Source of the DNA: a virus
Lineage: Duplodnaviria > Caudoviricetes
Virus record (IMG/VR): IMGVR_UViG_3300044564_000062
Location: 1 to 38,452 of that record
DNA length: 38,452 bases
Reading direction: 5' to 3' (one strand)
Of the stretch, positions 8,919 through 31,600 are shown piece after piece. How positions within the stretch are numbered: the stretch's first letter is position 1; the number at the start of each line of letters is the position of its first letter. Made by a program: the position numbers and the translations under genes. The notes under the pieces are model-generated. The model saw only the letters and a list, made by a program, of their open reading frames with translations. It had not been told where the DNA came from and did not search any database.

Positions 8919-9235
8919 GGCTGTACGTCATCGGCCCCGTGTCGGGGCATGAGGGGGACAACCGCGAGGCGTTCGAGGAGGCGCGCCGCGAGCTAGAGGC
9001 GGCTGGCTTCAAGGCGACCATCCCCCACGACAAGATCGCGGAGGGCACCGATTGGCAGATGGCCATGCGCCAGAGCATCCGCGAGATGCTGTCCGTCCGC
9101 GCCGGCAAGCCCGTGTACGGTGGCGTGGCGGAGCTGCGGGGCGTGTTCGGCTCGAAGGGCGCGCGCTGCGAGCGCGGAGTCTGCGAGCAGCTGGGCATCC
9201 CGCACAGGACCGTCGCGGAATGGTGCGGCCTATGA
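8915..9235 (+). CDS. DUF4406 / nucleoside 2-deoxyribosyltransferase-like protein
   Basis: MRLYVIGPVSG..NREAF...SKGARCE motifs. Confidence 0.75.
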   Translation: MRLYVIGPVSGHEGDNREAFEEARRELEAAGFKATIPHDKIAEGTDWQMAMRQSIREMLSVRAGKPVYGGVAELRGVFGSKGARCERGVCEQLGIPHRTVAEWCGL

Positions 9236-10350
9236 GGTACATAAGCCTGTTCAGCGGCATCGAGGCGGCGAGCGTCGCATGGGCTCCGCTGGGTTGGGAG
9301 CCGCTGGCCTTCGCTGAGATCGAGCCGTTCTGCTGCGAGCTGTTGGAGAAGCGTTTCCCCGGCGTCCCGAACCTCGGGGACGTGTGCGGGGTGGATTGGA
9401 GTTCATATCGTGGAAAGTGCGACCTCATCATCGGAGGCAGCCCGTGCCAGGCGTTCAGCGTCGCGGGACGGCGCGAGGGTCTGGATGACCCGCGTGGTCG
9501 CCTCATGCTCGAATACGCGAGGGCTGTTAGAGAGGTTGAGCCCAGATGGGTTCTCTGGGAGAACGTCCCCGGAGTTCTGTCGCAGGACGGGGGGGCAGCC
9601 TTTGGTACCCTCCTCGGGGTGCTGGAAGACTGCGGGTATTCTCTCGCATGGAGAGTGCTTGACGCTCAATTCTTCGGAGTACCCCAGCGCCGCCGCCGCG
9701 TGTTTCTTGTCGGACATACTAGAGCCCAGTGCGCCGCAGCGGTTCTATTTGAGCCCGAGAGCCTGCAGGGGTCTGCTCCGTCGAGCGCGGACAAAAGAGC
9801 GGAGCTTGCCGCCGGATCTGGAAGAGGCGCTTCTTGCGCAGGCTTCATCGCCGGAGTGAACCCGAGGGCGCGCGGGGTCGGATACGCCGAGGAGCAGTCC
9901 CCGACCCTCACCGCGGGGCAGACCGCAGAGGTGTTCGCAATCAACGGCAACGTGATAGGCCGCGAGCCCGAGAACGGCGGACACCAGCTGGGCATAACGG
10001 GGGACGGGGGTTCCCCCACGCTCACTACCGCAGACAGGCACGCCGTGGCCTTCGCGCAGAACCAGCGCGACGAGGTGAGGCTGTGCGGCGGGGACGGCCA
10101 GACGGTCGGCGCGCTCGCCGCCCGTCCCGGGGCGAAGCAGCAGAGCTACGTCTGCATGGCCGACCTCACGTCGAACGCCGCCATCGACTACGACCTCTGC
10201 GGGACCCTCAAGGTGAGCGGCGGCGAGCCCGTGGTCATGGCCCCGTCGTTCAGCCGCCGTCCCGCGCAGCAGCTCCCCACGAACGAGGACGGGCTGTCCT
10301 TCGCTTTGACGAGGGGGGGGGTGCCGCGAATATGCGAGACATGCGAGTGA
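9232..10350 (+). CDS. DNA (cytosine-5) methyltransferase, N-terminal part (motifs I-VIII and variable region)
   Basis: SLFSGIEA (I), GGSPCQAFS (IV), WENVPG (VI), PQRRRRVF (VIII); stops before motifs IX-X. Confidence 0.9.
   Translation: MRYISLFSGIEAASVAWAPLGWEPLAFAEIEPFCCELLEKRFPGVPNLGDVCGVDWSSYRGKCDLIIGGSPCQAFSVAGRREGLDDPRGRLMLEYARAVREVEPRWVLWENVPGVLSQDGGAAFGTLLGVLEDCGYSLAWRVLDAQFFGVPQRRRRVFLVGHTRAQCAAAVLFEPESLQGSAPSSADKRAELAAGSGRGASCAGFIAGVNPRARGVGYAEEQSPTLTAGQTAEVFAINGNVIGREPENGGHQLGITGDGGSPTLTTADRHAVAFAQNQRDEVRLCGGDGQTVGALAARPGAKQQSYVCMADLTSNAAIDYDLCGTLKVSGGEPVVMAPSFSRRPAQQLPTNEDGLSFALTRGGVPRICETCE
9485..9859 (+). CDS. Nested alternative-frame ORF inside the MTase (EcoHK31I beta-subunit-like candidate)
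   Basis: +1 frame open from 9410; ATG 9485 preceded by GAGGG; encodes LSDILE..PQRFYLSPRAC.GLLRRA; the MTase frame loses its GC3 bias here. Confidence 0.55.
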   Translation: MTRVVASCSNTRGLLERLSPDGFSGRTSPEFCRRTGGQPLVPSSGCWKTAGILSHGECLTLNSSEYPSAAAACFLSDILEPSAPQRFYLSPRACRGLLRRARTKERSLPPDLEEALLAQASSPE

Positions 10351-10550
10351 GGAAGCTGACTCCGACCGAGTGTGAGAGGCTGCAGGGCTTCCCCGACGGG
10401 TGGACCGACATCCGCGACGCGACCCCCGATACGCCGAGATGGCAGGCGCTGGGCAACTCCATGGCAGTGCCGGTCATCAGATGGCTGGGAGAGCGCATAC
10501 AGGCGGTTGATGAGATCGAGGTGGAGGTATATGGCCATCAGCAAGGATGA
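10332..10550 (+). CDS. C5 methyltransferase C-terminal part (motifs IX-X), out of frame after a G9 tract
   Basis: RKLTPTECERLQGFPD (IX) and ALGNSMAVPV (X); G9 at 10313-10321; ATGs at 10332 and 10341. Confidence 0.85.
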   Translation: MRDMRVRKLTPTECERLQGFPDGWTDIRDATPDTPRWQALGNSMAVPVIRWLGERIQAVDEIEVEVYGHQQG

Positions 10551-12525: not shown

Positions 12526-14030
12526 TGGAGAAGCGCGGAGACAAGGCCACTCACATCGAGACGTGGCTGCAGGGCCTCGGATACTCGCCTGACACCAGCA
12601 TGCGCGGGATGATCGGCGTGTGGTGGGGGTGGCTGCTCGCCGACAACAGCTGGTACCACTACAGCGAGCGCAGGGGCTTCCGCGTCTACAAGCGCGAGCG
12701 TGTGAGCCTGCATCCAGCCGCCCTCGTCGCCGACGAGTGGGCGAGCCTCCTCATGACGGAGGGCACCGTCATCTCTTCGAGCAACCCAGACCGCGCCGAG
12801 TGGATGGCCCGCCACTTCCCGAACCCGGACACCGGATCGCAGACGGATGAAGGGGAGCCGACCGAGGACATCGAGGAGCCGCAGAGCTTCGCCATGGACA
12901 ACGCCGACTTCATCTCCCGCGCCTTCGCCCTGGGGACCGGCGCATGGGTCATCGAGCCGCACGGCGTGACCGAGAACGCGACCACGCCGGACGCGGAGCT
13001 CCGCATCGTCGAGTACGACGCGACGCAGATATACCCGCTCACCTACTCGACAAAGGGATGCACGCAGTGCGCCTTCTCCGGGCGCGTGGAGGTCGGCGGA
13101 AAGGCGTACGACCAGTGCCAGGCGCACGTCATCATCGGCGGCGAGTACCACATCCTCACGCAGCTCTTCGGGGACAACGGGCAGAAGGTCGAAGTGGAGA
13201 GCATCATCGGCGACTTCAACACCCACTGCAAGAGGCCGCTGTTCTCGCTCGTGACCCCCGGCGTGCCCAACCACCACCGCGCGTACAGCGCCATGGGAGC
13301 GAGCGTGTACCAGAACGCGCTGGGCGCGATAAAGACCACGGACGAGGCGCTGACCGGGTTCCTCGACCACATGCGCGTGGGACGCCCCAAGACCTTCATA
13401 GATGACACGCTCATCGAGAGCAAGACCGAGAAGGACAAGAAGACGGGCGAGACCGTGAAGACCTACTACGCCTTCGGCGAGGCCGACGACTGCGTGTTCC
13501 GCATGCGGCCGGGAGACGAGGGCGGCAAGAAGATCGACGTGGTGCAGACCGACCTCAAGGTGGACGAGCTGACCGAGGCCATCAACACGGGCCTGCGCAT
13601 GCTGTCCCTCACCTGCGGCTTCGGCAACGCGCGATTCTCGTGGGACGCGCACACCGGCCTCAAGACCGCCAAGGAGGTGAGCGCGGACAACTCCATGCTC
13701 ATGAACAGCATCAAGAAGCACACCAACAGCCTGCGCAAGTCCATCGTCCGCCTCGTGAACGGCATGGCCGAGGCGTGCCGCAAGATTCGCGGCGAGAACG
13801 TGCCGTACGGCGACGTCACCGTGACGTTCGATGATTCCATCGTCACCGACACCACGAGCGCGCGCGAGATGGCCATGAGCGAGGTCGGCGCTGGCATCAT
13901 GCAGGCATGGGAGTACCGCAAGCGGTTCTACGGCGAGAGCGAGGAGGACGCCAGGGCCGCGCTCGAAGACGCCTCCCTGCATGAGCAGGGGCCAGACCCG
14001 TTCGACATGCTCGATGACGGGCTGTCCTGA
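12525..14030 (+). CDS. Portal protein
   Basis: About 500 aa after terL (TGATG coupling); KTAKEVS and VTFDDSI motifs of A118/SPP1-type portals. Confidence 0.88.
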   Translation: MEKRGDKATHIETWLQGLGYSPDTSMRGMIGVWWGWLLADNSWYHYSERRGFRVYKRERVSLHPAALVADEWASLLMTEGTVISSSNPDRAEWMARHFPNPDTGSQTDEGEPTEDIEEPQSFAMDNADFISRAFALGTGAWVIEPHGVTENATTPDAELRIVEYDATQIYPLTYSTKGCTQCAFSGRVEVGGKAYDQCQAHVIIGGEYHILTQLFGDNGQKVEVESIIGDFNTHCKRPLFSLVTPGVPNHHRAYSAMGASVYQNALGAIKTTDEALTGFLDHMRVGRPKTFIDDTLIESKTEKDKKTGETVKTYYAFGEADDCVFRMRPGDEGGKKIDVVQTDLKVDELTEAINTGLRMLSLTCGFGNARFSWDAHTGLKTAKEVSADNSMLMNSIKKHTNSLRKSIVRLVNGMAEACRKIRGENVPYGDVTVTFDDSIVTDTTSAREMAMSEVGAGIMQAWEYRKRFYGESEEDARAALEDASLHEQGPDPFDMLDDGLS

Positions 14031-15703
14031 TGCTCGACCCGGAGTACATAGACCGCTTCACGGACGCGGCGCAGGGCGCGATGGACGCGTACACCTTGCG
14101 CCTCGTCTGCATCTACTCCGCGCTGCTGGGTTCCATAGACTTCGAGGGAGAGGGCGCGTACCTTGAGGCCGCGAGGGAGGCCGCCAAGGCCGAGACGGAT
14201 GCCAAGAAGGCTATGAGCAAGGAGGGGCGCGAGGCCGCGAGGGAGGCGGCGCGGGCCGCAGCCGATGCGCTTGCGCAGTCCGAGGCCAACGATCTGGCCG
14301 CCATAGGCATGGCGGTCGCCGAGCTGTCCTCCATGGCGCGCAAGAGGCTCCACAACGCCGCGCGCGCAACCGTCGCGGGCGTGCAGGACATCATCACGCG
14401 GGACAACCTCAAGATGCCCGCAGCAGTCCAGAGGAACTACCTCGAAGTCGCCGCAGAGGCCATCGCGAGCGTCAACAGCGGCCTGTCGTCGTACGAGGAC
14501 GCCGTGCGCAGGGCGGTGTTGGAGCTGTCGAGGCGTGGGGTGTCCGTTGTCGAGTACAAGAGCGGGGCGAGGGCGCAGGCCGACGTGGCCATGCGCCGGC
14601 ACGTCCGAACGCAGGTCATGCAGGCAGGGGCGAGAAACACGCTCGCGCTCATGGAGGAGACCGGCCACGACCTCGTGCAGACTTCGAGCCACGGGGGAAG
14701 CCGTCCCGAGCACGCGAAGTGGCAGGGGCGCGTGTTCTCGCTCTCCGGCAAGTCTGACAAGTACCCCGACTTCCGATCTTCGACCGGCTACGGCAGCGTG
14801 GACGGCCTCTGCGGGGCGAACTGCAAGCACTCCTTCGGCATCTACGTCGAGGGCAGGAAGAAGCGTTACGAGAGCGACCCTGACGGCGGGGACGAGAAGA
14901 GGCAGGAGCGGTACGAGGCGTCGCAGAGGCAGCGCGAGATAGAGCGGAACATCAGGAAGTACAAGCGTGACTCCGCCGCCCTGCAGGCCGCCGGCATAGA
15001 CGACACGCCGGAGCGCATGAAGCTCGCCAAGTGGCAGGGCGAGCAGCGGGCGCACCTGGCGAAGCACCCGTACCTGACGCGCCGCTACGAGCGCGAGAAC
15101 CCGTACGAGACGCAGACGAGGGTGTACGCGCTCACGAGGCAGAAGGTGAGCCGCACGGCGTACATGGCGCACCCCAACACCAAGGCCATAATCTGCGACG
15201 CGGGTGTGAGCCAGAAACGCGTGGGCGAGCTGGTCAAGGCGTCCGGGGCGAACTTCGAGACCATGGCGGCGCGAGATCGCCGCGCGACGCTCGACGCCGC
15301 CATACGAAGGGCGAAGGTCGAGAAGCGCAGGGACGAGCGCGTCGCGGACAAGGCGGCGAACGTCGTGCTCGCGGGGAAGCAGAACAAGCACATCCCCGGA
15401 ACGAGGGAGTACCGGCAGCACCTTGAGAAGGTGAGGCGCGAGGGCGTGTTCCCGGAGCCGAGCGCGCTGACCGTGAGCGCCGAGGAAGCGCAGCGGCTCG
15501 TTGACGAGTACGCTGGCACCGGCGTGGTCATGCCGTCGAGGAACGGGGTGTGGAACTCGCGCGAGGTGTGCGAGGCGACGAGGGTGATAGGCTACGTCGT
15601 GACCGAGAACGGCGATAGAATAGACACCAACAGGTTCACCATCCACTACGCCAAGAACGGCGTCCACATAGTACCGGCGGCACCGAGGGAGGGGCAGGCA
15701 TGA
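14030..15703 (+). CDS. Minor capsid (MuF-like) protein with a C-terminal polymorphic toxin domain (Ntox50-like RNase)
   Basis: SSHGGSRPEHAKWQGRVFS...GLCGANCKH head domain; C-terminal KQNKHIPG...TIHYAKNGVHIVP. Confidence 0.82.
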   Translation: MLDPEYIDRFTDAAQGAMDAYTLRLVCIYSALLGSIDFEGEGAYLEAAREAAKAETDAKKAMSKEGREAAREAARAAADALAQSEANDLAAIGMAVAELSSMARKRLHNAARATVAGVQDIITRDNLKMPAAVQRNYLEVAAEAIASVNSGLSSYEDAVRRAVLELSRRGVSVVEYKSGARAQADVAMRRHVRTQVMQAGARNTLALMEETGHDLVQTSSHGGSRPEHAKWQGRVFSLSGKSDKYPDFRSSTGYGSVDGLCGANCKHSFGIYVEGRKKRYESDPDGGDEKRQERYEASQRQREIERNIRKYKRDSAALQAAGIDDTPERMKLAKWQGEQRAHLAKHPYLTRRYERENPYETQTRVYALTRQKVSRTAYMAHPNTKAIICDAGVSQKRVGELVKASGANFETMAARDRRATLDAAIRRAKVEKRRDERVADKAANVVLAGKQNKHIPGTREYRQHLEKVRREGVFPEPSALTVSAEEAQRLVDEYAGTGVVMPSRNGVWNSREVCEATRVIGYVVTENGDRIDTNRFTIHYAKNGVHIVPAAPREGQA

Positions 15704-27925: not shown

Positions 27926-29467
27926 ATGGCAAGCAAGACCCACATCATGAGCGACGAGACGGGGCAGCGCATCGCCGCCGCCCTTGAGGCGATGGCGCGC
28001 GGCTCCCTGCTCACCTACGACGACGAGGCGGGCGAGTACGCGGGCGTGGACAAGTGGCTGCGCTCCATGCGCGACGGGCGCATCTACAGCATCAAGGTGC
28101 CGACCGGCAGCGCCGTGGCGTGCGTGAAGGCGGACGCGAACGCGGGAGTTGCCGTTCCGACGCCCGGAACCAACTCCGCAGCCGCCATCGACCCCTATGC
28201 TGCGCTCGCCCCGTTCTTCCACATCGACTGCAACGCCACGGTTGACGCGGACGGCGTTCCTCACATCACGGCCATCTCCGGCGACGGCATGTTCGCCCGC
28301 ACGGGCGGGAACGGAAACGTGTGGGTGCTCGCCCCGGTGCTCTTCTGGAAGATCGCGGACGACGCGGACGGTGCCTACACGGTCATCTCCATCTCGGACA
28401 CGCAGCTCCCCGGCTTCTCCCCGCAGCCCGGGGCCATGCTACCGGACGGCAGCCTGCGCCCGTGCATGATCTACGCGAAGTACGCGCTCTCGACCTACGA
28501 CGGCGAGGCGGCGAGCGTTTCGGGCGCGCAGCCGCGCACGCGCGACGTGTCACACAACGCGCTCATTACCATCTGCAAGACGGCGACCACCGGCTACAGC
28601 GGCCGCAGCGTGGCGGATGACTGGTACCTCAAGGTCATGCTCCTGATGAAGTACGCGACCAAGAACTCGCAGAGTGTCTTCCAGGGTTGCGCGAGCTACA
28701 ACGTCATCAAGGCAGTGACTGTGGCGGCGAGCAACCAGAGCCACGTCATCGTGGCCAAGAACCACGGCTACCTCGCAGGCAGCGCCGTCATGATCGGCAC
28801 GCAGAACACCGACCGAGGCAACGCCGCCGCGCACGACGTGCTCGACTACGCCGTCATCAAGCGCATCGAGAGCCACGACGACAGCAACGACAAGCTCATC
28901 CTCAACCGCGCCGCCACCACCGCCGTGGGCAACTACGTCATCAGCGCCCCGTGGCCCACGGGATGCTGCGACGGCGTGCAGGGCGACGGTTCGCCCACAT
29001 CGCGCACGAGCGGCAAGGAGCCGTTCTCCCTGCAGGGCATCGAGACCGCCATGGGCATGTACGAGGTGATGAGCGGCGTAGCCCTCAAGTACGACGGCTC
29101 CGCCTGCAACGTCATGGTGCTGCACGACACGAAGAAGGAAGCCACGACCATCAGCGCCGACTACGTGGACACCGGCGTCGACCTTCCCGTGGCGGCCACG
29201 GAGGGGTGGAAGTACCCGACGAGGCTGTCGAACGCCAAGGGCATGCTCGTGGGGACAGGCTCCGGAGCGTCCACGACAACCGGGATGTGCGACGGCACGT
29301 ACACGAACGCCCAGGCGACGAACGCGGATCGAGAGTTCCCCTCGCTGGGCCACTTGTACAACGGCTCGTACGCGGGCTGGTGGTGCGTCAACGGCGACAA
29401 CGCCCTGTCGCACGCCTGGTGGAGCATCGGGTCGCGCCTCTCTGGCACTGGTCGCTCAAGGGGGTGA
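27926..29467 (+). CDS. DGR target protein; putative receptor-binding tail protein with C-terminal C-type-lectin-fold VR
   Basis: 513 aa in the tail module; C-terminus SLGHLYNGSYAGWWCVNGDNALSHAWWSIGSRLS matches the downstream TR. Confidence 0.9.
   Translation: MASKTHIMSDETGQRIAAALEAMARGSLLTYDDEAGEYAGVDKWLRSMRDGRIYSIKVPTGSAVACVKADANAGVAVPTPGTNSAAAIDPYAALAPFFHIDCNATVDADGVPHITAISGDGMFARTGGNGNVWVLAPVLFWKIADDADGAYTVISISDTQLPGFSPQPGAMLPDGSLRPCMIYAKYALSTYDGEAASVSGAQPRTRDVSHNALITICKTATTGYSGRSVADDWYLKVMLLMKYATKNSQSVFQGCASYNVIKAVTVAASNQSHVIVAKNHGYLAGSAVMIGTQNTDRGNAAAHDVLDYAVIKRIESHDDSNDKLILNRAATTAVGNYVISAPWPTGCCDGVQGDGSPTSRTSGKEPFSLQGIETAMGMYEVMSGVALKYDGSACNVMVLHDTKKEATTISADYVDTGVDLPVAATEGWKYPTRLSNAKGMLVGTGSGASTTTGMCDGTYTNAQATNADREFPSLGHLYNGSYAGWWCVNGDNALSHAWWSIGSRLSGTGRSRG
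29335..29445 (+). repeat. DGR variable repeat (VR)
   Basis: 111-nt match to 29562-29672; 12 mismatches, 11 opposite TR adenines. Confidence 0.95.
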
Positions 29468-29468
29468 A

Positions 29469-29501
29469 TCGCCGTAGGCGAGAGGGGGCGAAGCCCCCTC
29501 T
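29469..29501. promoter_or_regulatory. Tandem GNA-triloop hairpins after VR (putative DGR target-recognition cruciform)
   Basis: TCGCC-GTA-GGCGA (29469-29481) and AGAGGGGGC-GAA-GCCCCCTCT (29481-29501). Confidence 0.75.
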
Positions 29502-29515
29502 TAAAGGGTATGCGG

Positions 29516-29521
29516 TATAAT
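29516..29521 (+). promoter_or_regulatory. Putative -10 box for the TR-RT transcript
   Basis: Perfect TATAAT in GC-rich DNA about 40 nt upstream of TR; no clear -35. Confidence 0.55.
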
Positions 29522-29561: not shown

Positions 29562-29672
29562 GTTCCACTCGCTGGGCAACTTGAACAACGGCTCGAACGC
29601 GGGCTTGTGGTACGTCAACGGCAACAACGCCCTGTCGAACGCCAGGTGGAACATCGGGTCGCGCCAATCTGG
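29562..29672 (+). repeat. DGR template repeat (TR)
   Basis: AAC-rich copy of VR (9 AAC codons in the VR frame, 24 adenines in total), located between the target and RT. Confidence 0.95.
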
Positions 29673-29831: not shown

Positions 29832-30924
29832 ATGAAGACGTACTGCAGGGGCCTCGTGATAGACCGAGCCATCGTGGAAGAGGCGTACCGCGAGTGGAGC
29901 GAGGCCCCTGCGGGCAAGAAGAACGCGTGGCGCGTCAGGCAAGAGTACGGAAGCGCCGCGAACCTCATAGACGAGGTGGCGCGGGAGATCGCGGAACGCT
30001 GCCTCGTATTCGAGCCAATCCACCGATACGACCACATAGAACCGACGAACGGCAAGGTGCGCACCATCGGCGTGTCCTCTGTGAAGCAGCAGCTGGTCGA
30101 TTACGTCGTGGTCCACTGCTGCGCCGACTTCCTCAAGACGCGGGCAGGCCACTACCAGGCATCGAGCGTGAAGGGAAAGGGGGCGACCTTCACCATGCGC
30201 ACGATACGAAAATGGGTGACTGGGGGGGGGTCCTCGCTTCTTCGTCAAGATGGACGTCCGGAAGTGCTACCCATCCACCAGGCACGACGTCGTGCTGGGG
30301 ATATTCCGCAAGTACGTCGCGTCGCCTGACGTCCTCTACTGCATCGAATCGCTCCTCGCCACCTACACGGACGGCGGCCTTGAGATCGGCAGCTACTTCT
30401 CGCTGCGCGCCGAACAGCTCGTGCTGTCGTTCGCGTACCACCACGTCGAGGGGCTGCACAAGGAAAGGCGTGGAAAGAAACGGGCGCTGGTTGCGCACCA
30501 GCTGTGGTACATGGACGATGTGCTGCTGATGGGCAACGACAAGCGCGACCTCAAGGCCGCAGCCCGCTCGCTTGAGAGGTACATGAGGAGCGAGCTGGGT
30601 CTTGAGCTCAAGCCGTGGAAGATATGCCGCGTCGGCGAGGACGAGCCCATCGACATGGGTGGCTACGTCGTGCGCCCCTCGCACGTCGAGGTGCGCGCCG
30701 GCACGTTCCTGCGCGGCATGCGGGCGTTCCGGAGGTTCAAGCGCAAGCCCGGGCTGCGGCGCGCGAGACGCGTCACGAGCTACATGGGCTACTTCAAGCA
30801 CGCGGACTGCGACGACCTCATGGCGAGGAACGACATGCACGCTACGATGCGGGCCGCAAGGCGGTACGTATCGAGGAGCGCGCATGCAGCAAACAACATC
30901 GGCGACACCGCTCGACGCCGTTAA
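29832..30924 (+). CDS. DGR reverse transcriptase, frameshifted at G9 (30222-30230); 363 aa if the tract is G8
   Basis: N-half MKTYC...NGKVRTIG...KGKG; C-half in the +1 frame FFVKMDVRKCYPS, GLEIGSYFS, WYMDD, LGLELKP, IDMGGY. Confidence 0.9.
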
Positions 30925-31600
30925 GATCGAGCAGCGCCCAGACGGGCAGGCGGACGTTTGGCTCCGCAAGAACATCACCAAGGAGACGATCGAGGACGAG
31001 GCCTCCGGCGAGCAGCGCGAGCAGTGGGTCGCCGACGAGGTGCATCTCGTCAAGGCCATCACGCAGGAGGAGGCGGAGGCTTCCTTCGATGAGCTATGGG
31101 ACGAGGCGGAGGCGGCGGAGACCCCGCAGGACGAGCGCATCAAGGCGTTGGAGACCATCGCCAAGACGTTCACCGCGTCGGCGTCGCAGCTCGCGCAGAT
31201 TCGCACCGCCGCGACGCTCTCCATACAGACCATGGCCGCGAGCCTCACCGACGAGCAGGCCATCAGCGTCTCCGGCCTCATCCCGGCGTACGAGGTCGGC
31301 AGGGACTACAAGAAGGGCGACCTGCTCACGTACGAGGGCGAGGTCTACCGCGTTGCGCAGGACCACACCTCGCAGGCGCAGTGGGTGCCCGGGAACGGCA
31401 CGGAGAGCCTTTACACGCACATCACGCTCGCGGGCGACAGCATCCCCGTGTGGCAGCAGCCGACCGGCGCGCACGACGCCTACAACACGGGGGACAAGGT
31501 CCACTACCCGGACGAATCCGGTCCCGTGTACGTGTCCAAGATCGACGGCAACACATGGTCGCCGGACGCCTACCCGGCGGGATGGGAACTCTCCGAATAA
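30884..31600 (+). CDS. Protein with two C-terminal CBM5/12-like carbohydrate-binding modules (tail chaperone or DGR accessory candidate)
   Basis: GAGGAG RBS; YKKGDLLTYEGEVYRVAQDHTSQAQWVP and WQQPTGAHDAYNTGDKVHY...WSP..YPAGW; overlaps the RT 3' end. Confidence 0.78.
   Translation: MQQTTSATPLDAVKIEQRPDGQADVWLRKNITKETIEDEASGEQREQWVADEVHLVKAITQEEAEASFDELWDEAEAAETPQDERIKALETIAKTFTASASQLAQIRTAATLSIQTMAASLTDEQAISVSGLIPAYEVGRDYKKGDLLTYEGEVYRVAQDHTSQAQWVPGNGTESLYTHITLAGDSIPVWQQPTGAHDAYNTGDKVHYPDESGPVYVSKIDGNTWSPDAYPAGWELSE

Follow-up and report, generated by a model that had tools for sequence, protein, structure and literature searches.

The reverse transcriptase (RT) gene of a phage DGR contains a run of G's that, in the alleles compared here, is a recurrent, length-variable gate of the enzyme at the level of the reading frame. 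We lean slightly towards the view that this tract is a heritable, reversible on/off switch of the RT operated by replication slippage. The DNA analyzed, a 38,452-base virus record referred to below as the window, is a temperate phage encoding terminase, portal, tail, and lysin proteins, and it carries nine G's in the tract (G9), an OFF allele. The right end of the window enters host genes for tRNA-Arg, patatin, seryl-tRNA synthetase, and tRNA-Leu. The genomes bearing close RT relatives carry the names Collinsella, Olsenella, and Coprousia, suggesting that the host of the prophage is likely a gut bacterium of the Coriobacteriia. Elsewhere in the phage genome, a gene at positions 14030-15703 (+) encodes a minor capsid protein (Phage_min_cap2) fused to the Pfam Ntox50 domain (E 1.9e-24), and by domain content this fusion resembles a polymorphic antibacterial toxin carried by the phage. 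The DGR comprises the following features.

27926..29467 (+): DGR target gene of 513 aa in the tail-gene region, matching PHROG 5302 tail protein (E 1.3e-23), with the variable repeat at its C-terminus
29335..29445 (+): variable repeat (VR) of 111 nt, 89% identical to the template repeat
29469..29501 (+): two GC-rich hairpins downstream of VR/IMH in the centroid fold, TCGCC-GTA-GGCGA and AGAGGGGGC-GAA-GCCCCCTCT
29516..29521 (+): TATAAT, candidate -10 box for the TR-RT transcript and the sole plus-strand TATAAT in the window
29562..29672 (+): template repeat (TR) with 24 adenines, forming the repeat pair with VR
29832..30221 (+): N-terminal part of the RT, 130 codons from ATG 29832, matching PHROG 1423 reverse transcriptase (E 3.3e-9)
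30222..30230 (+): G9 tract, candidate slippage site, at which G8 encodes Gly-Gly-Gly in frame
30232..30924 (+): C-terminal part of the RT with all catalytic aspartates (KMDV, YMDD), out of frame here, matching Pfam RVT_1 (E 6.5e-7)

The VR encodes the last ~44 codons of the target gene and differs from the TR at 12 of 111 sites, 11 of them at TR adenines. Two of these 11 adenine-site differences recur unchanged in every relative and are probably what distinguishes IMH from IMH*. Where a related locus has a full VR/TR pair, its mismatches are all at A. The non-adenine mismatch at position 29379 (T in the TR, G in the VR) is absent in every such locus; two further sequencing runs described below, X2 and X5, have T at this site. 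The VRs of relatives differ from one another at TR-adenine sites, which indicates past DGR activity only. In one relative (L072), the VR has a 10-base gap in the alignment with the window's TR, which suggests an insertion made during retrohoming. The AlphaFold model of the target protein (pLDDT 93) had only three Foldseek matches at E<=0.001, all of them chains of the DGR variable protein TaqVP (5vf4), with a best E of 1.2e-6 and modest TM scores of 0.34-0.47. The 513-aa target is predicted to be a receptor-binding protein of the C-type lectin-like variable protein type. The gene overlapping the 3' end of the RT, at 30884-31600 (+), contains a CBM_5_12 carbohydrate-binding module and is possibly a tail-associated partner of the DGR target.

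The hairpins at 29469-29501, with a putative IMH/hairpin role, were kept in all 11 relatives shown, and the 86-nt hairpin region folds no better than shuffled sequences (z -1.24). The TATAAT was likewise kept in place between the VR hairpins and the TR in 11 of the 11 relatives shown, with variable spacing. A sigma-70 scan yielded no full promoter, and the conserved box is likely a dedicated promoter element for TR-RT. No Avd match was found among the 28 window ORFs scanned, and the 95-nt gap between the target stop codon and the TR leaves no room for avd. A full-length relative of the RT (P0130) had the Bordetella bRT (8ub7) as its best PDB match (E 4.9e-11), with group II intron RTs ranking lower. 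A search of GenBank phages returned only a 59-nt TR-like match. By its parts, the element appears to be a complete avd-less DGR apart from the out-of-frame RT, and its layout fits the avd-less architecture A as outlined in the consulted portions of PMC5758913.

The G9 tract lies directly 5' of FFVKMDVRKCYPS, in agreement with the sequence-only reading, which had placed it just before a catalytic motif. The computed ORF lengths are 362 aa for G5, 164 for G6, 231 for G7, 363 for G8, 165 for G9, 232 for G10, and 364 for G11, and every out-of-frame tract length gives a product that has neither KMDV nor YMDD. The G9 frame terminates at TGA 30327-30329, and the C-terminal half runs to TAA 30922-30924. 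These values reproduce the earlier proposal that G8 or G11 would give a 363/364-aa RT and that G9 ends it at 30329. Both RT halves are free of stops, and the TR, VR, and hairpins are intact in the window sequence, also as first read.

The proposed mechanism can be outlined as follows. Replication slippage would shift the run between G8 and G7 or G9. With G8, the 363-aa RT would be made, the VR adenines rewritten, and the predicted tail receptor-binding protein diversified. With G6, G7, G9, or G10, the frame ends before both catalytic motifs and the current VR would be frozen. An OFF prophage keeps the TR, VR, hairpins, and both RT halves and would presumably lose RT activity, which the loss of one G from G9 would restore. 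Selection would retain the tract for the benefit that such toggling may bring. The frame effect, the allele series, the recurrence across lineages, and the intact cis elements are the observed part of this model.

The recurrence of frame-shifted RTs was assessed in protein records. The protein clusters of the first lineage comprise 288 members that are mainly full-length, 53 that are mainly C-halves, and 27 N-halves; those of a second lineage have 293 and 18 members. Among the matches listed (up to 15 per cluster, from queries that enriched halves, and thus not allele frequencies), 73 close homologues cover the site; a frameshift occurs at the tract in 35 of them and not in the other 38. As read from the peptides, the 35 shifted products include 27 of the G9 type, six of the G6 type, and two of the G7 type, two of the 35 being this genome's own allele. 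Among the listed C-half records, six have a start that corresponds to the G7 frame and one a start that corresponds to G10. In the survey of homologous RTs for variable tract length that had been suggested earlier, the homologues keep the tract, and its length varies from six to ten G's. OFF forms occur in about six lineages with 73-100% identity to P0121, and the ON/OFF label requires 16 changes on a quick tree with few well-supported branches, at least 8 of the changes being forced by branches of that kind. Five sets of identical N-halves contain both ON and OFF forms, and an ON protein with 99-100% identity exists for 11 of 14 OFF C-halves. Away from the tract, the matches listed for this clade included only two proteins with a clear internal break (P0184 and P0197). 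In tract-less clusters, four of the 75 members among the matches listed were shortened, at differing places, a weak control given that fragments often cluster apart. A second candidate slippery site near RT codon 35 (P0078 cluster) was rejected because it reflected alternative start calls.

At the DNA level, 15 of the 16 tract-bearing database loci left after removal of duplicates have G8, and the remaining one (L006) has G10. Two further loci (L063 and L064) have no tract, their codons for these three glycines being GGC GGC GGC. The OFF state was found in 2 of 18 independent records. Since the relatives have G8, this length is the normal one, and the window's G9 represents the gain of a single base. 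The sequence-only reading had pictured a phase-variable switch that turns receptor diversification ON in a subpopulation. Its core is retained, in that the tract varies in length and gates the frame, but most records are ON (G8) and only a minority OFF, and the tract would act more to switch off than to switch on in a subpopulation. The VR-TR mismatch counts do not separate OFF loci (12 and 9) from ON loci (5-18). VR mismatches also failed as an OFF marker, with a non-A mismatch in the window's OFF allele and none in the OFF locus L006.

Several comparisons bear on whether the tract is maintained. Three lineages all keep GGG GGG GGT despite synonymous divergence at 32-50% of their four-fold sites (0.32-0.50), and GGG is a minority codon, accounting for 110 of the 534 Gly codons counted in 12 ORFs of the window. 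The tract loop accepts other residues in homologues. Against maintenance, the tract is dispensable: some sister lineages lack it, L063 and L064 with their GGC codons and five protein lineages (P0001, P0002, P0005, P0006, and P0012) with other residues at the tract site. Alignment of four related phage genomes sharing 80-95% identity gave 26 alignable G/C runs of at least 5, of which 7 were kept in all four, namely the RT tract and six runs in hairpins or a likely ribosome-binding site. The RT tract is the sole G/C run of at least 8 in three of these four genomes. In a four-fold test that left out the tract-less L063 and L064 and the broken L067, 32 of 114 four-fold columns were invariant, so that retention at the two silent tract sites is modest, with p about 0.08. 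More distant RTs had no G/C run of at least 6 in the RT match, either in 43 loci (L010-L052) or in 37 further loci at 38-54% identity, so that the tract is specific to this clade.

The main rival to a reversible switch, possible though not probable in our judgment, is that the tract is a knockout hotspot. According to this explanation, DGR activity is often costly, and RT-null prophages arise and spread locally, most easily by changes at the G8 run; with similarly tentative standing, the run itself would persist through inheritance and through slippage that removes interruptions. However, a needed gene would be expected to shed a run prone to frameshifts through synonymous change, as happened to all 19 of the other plain coding G/C runs in at least one of the related phage genomes. 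Among the other Gly columns with any GGG, none of 11 is GGG throughout, and the OFF halves show little further decay, both of which also speak against a hotspot. Weighing against a switch, four of the 15 G8 loci were broken by other means: L065 by a frameshift, L067 by a stop together with VR/TR collapse, L068 by a missing TR, and L070 by VR/TR collapse. L067 and L070 have a single merged copy of VR and TR; these mergers and the TR loss in L068 may represent irreversible recombination between repeats or assembly collapse. That the DGR is shut off is evidently a common event, one expected under the switch and the hotspot alike, and it is reversibility and selection on the tract that separate the two.

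An unlikely alternative is that G9 acts as a leaky dimmer, in which slippage of the ribosome or RNA polymerase on the tract still gives a low level of full-length RT. G9 reads as GGG GGG GGG, which makes perfect tRNA re-pairing possible in the +1 frame, and low-level +1 shifting on G strings has reportedly been seen in work on herpesvirus thymidine kinase. However, the common allele is in frame, and alleles of both the +1 and the -1 type occur, which fits slippage on DNA better than programmed shifting. As a stimulatory structure, the weak stem that spans the tract is not convincing.

Very unlikely is a homopolymer error of sequencing or assembly. The platforms are off record for the four runs that were compared, all as contigs (X1, X2, X4, and X5), as well as for the protein records, and the consulted portions of PMC9187656 warn that G-tract lengths in databases may err and that Illumina reads may stop at G tracts. 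The X5 contigs break at the tract, which is uninformative because a drop in coverage would look alike. Against an error, the contig from X1, a possible source run, matches the window in 1751 of 1751 bases with G9 at a depth of 49.5. The tract-bearing X4 contig has one difference from the window in 849 letters and has G8. The X2 contig, from another study, has 26 differences in 829 (~3%) and no gap at the tract, corresponding to an out-of-frame length. Because of these three contigs, the G9 allele is probably not a sequencing error. In addition, OFF alleles are found on contigs of up to 94 kb from Logan, ENA, NCBI, and JGI, and five pairs of N-half and C-half records have an equal-sized longest contig, suggesting one contig per pair. 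A four-glycine in-frame form was absent among 37 full-length close homologues. The earlier caveat that a platform under-calls homopolymers, in the form of G11 read as G9, does not fit these data and is rejected because of the G8 of the relatives. Accurate-looking assemblies do not turn out to be uniformly in frame, as an artefact would have it, and instead mix in-frame and shifted alleles. No mixture of tract alleles was seen within one sample in the contigs, a form of data that hides rare variants.

The window has only two G9 runs, and the second lies in another gene.

9232-10550 (+): C5 DNA methyltransferase gene with two G runs, at 9589-9595 (G7) and 10313-10321 (G9)

In this gene, G7 is in frame and the C-terminal motifs are lost through G9; the last 72 aa could be restarted from an ATG at 10332, just 3' of the G9 run. 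The second tract was found only in the window (G9) and in one relative (L116), which has G6 at the first tract and G8 at the second, both out of frame. Two other relatives (L117 and L118) have G7 at the first tract and lack the second, and their N and C parts share one frame. A distant methyltransferase locus (L188) packs seven G runs, each 7-10 bases long, into about 1.4 kb, reflecting either many tracts or poor sequence. The sequence-only reading had paired the RT and methyltransferase runs as lying in two host-adaptation enzymes. Its count of G9 runs was right, but the pairing is unsupported: the window has 4 G8 matches versus 1.95 expected for its composition, and 17 of 100 shuffles scored as high, so that enrichment is not significant. 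Coordinated switching of the two genes is likewise unsupported, the second tract being present in one relative only and out of frame there too.

By analogy with characterized systems, the tract resembles a poly-G contingency locus placed inside a standard avd-less DGR. On the contingency side, an intragenic homopolymer sets the frame, and its length polymorphism recurs among near-identical strains (X4 versus the window). On the DGR side are the adenine-site TR/VR differences, a DGR-type RT next to the TR, a C-terminal VR in the target gene, and hairpins after the VR. The BPP-1 DGR, known for Mtd tropism switching, has the same C-terminal VR target, TR, adenine-specific differences, GC-rich hairpin after the VR, and phage tail context, together with the bRT that best matches this RT family. 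In contrast to BPP-1, the window has no avd between the target and the TR, and the RTs of its clade have the in-frame G8 tract where bRT has ELRRTRATH. According to the consulted portions of PMC8778435, the prophage DGRs of Eggerthella lenta are also found in Coriobacteriia, have tail-region targets, and have demonstrated activity in one case; however, most of them have a predicted avd, the term "phase variation" refers there to VR diversification, and those portions mention no RT tract.

The nearest measured case, to judge from the consulted portions of PMC9187656, is that of the pilus G-tracts of Bifidobacterium breve (bbr_0113 and bbr_1889), likewise from a gut actinobacterium, in which a G run of comparable length divides an ORF or makes it whole and single-base changes toggle expression. 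The B. breve tracts differ in being G10/G11 and chromosomal, in governing a surface structure directly, and in that their slippage was measured, whereas the gene gated in the window is a prophage mutator whose switching is deduced from allele distributions. The poly-G/C contingency loci of Campylobacter and Neisseria, as far as the sources consulted describe them, share translational phase variation by homopolymer length, with tracts of about 8-10. Those loci switch surface or methylation phenotypes, whereas the window's tract would set how fast a different locus mutates, a control of second order. No report of a repeat-tract switch in a DGR RT was found in the main texts of the open-access literature, and the consulted portions of PMC8144416, PMC8867640, PMC8778435, and 10.1101/2024.11.15.621889 make no mention of one.

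DGR carriers have to weigh bursts of mutagenesis against the loss of working variants. The consulted portions of a bioRxiv preprint (10.1101/2024.11.15.621889) note that the controls of retrohoming, in signals and mechanisms alike, "await discovery" and expect bursts to alternate with quiet periods. A one-base RT switch is a simple candidate mechanism for such burst/quiet control. We give about an even chance to the broader proposal that a clade of gut Coriobacteriia phages evolved a phase-variable mutator, in which a selectively kept G8 tract toggles the RT and the VR is locked and then diversified again. The idea can be tested directly: Collinsella is among the hosts, nature provides G8, G9, and tract-less GGC alleles, and the diversity of the VR can be read out. 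If true, and the case is evenly poised, the phase-variable mutator would be a cis-encoded, heritable regulator of phage DGR activity, and some of the frameshifted DGR RTs dismissed as dead in surveys may be in the OFF phase.
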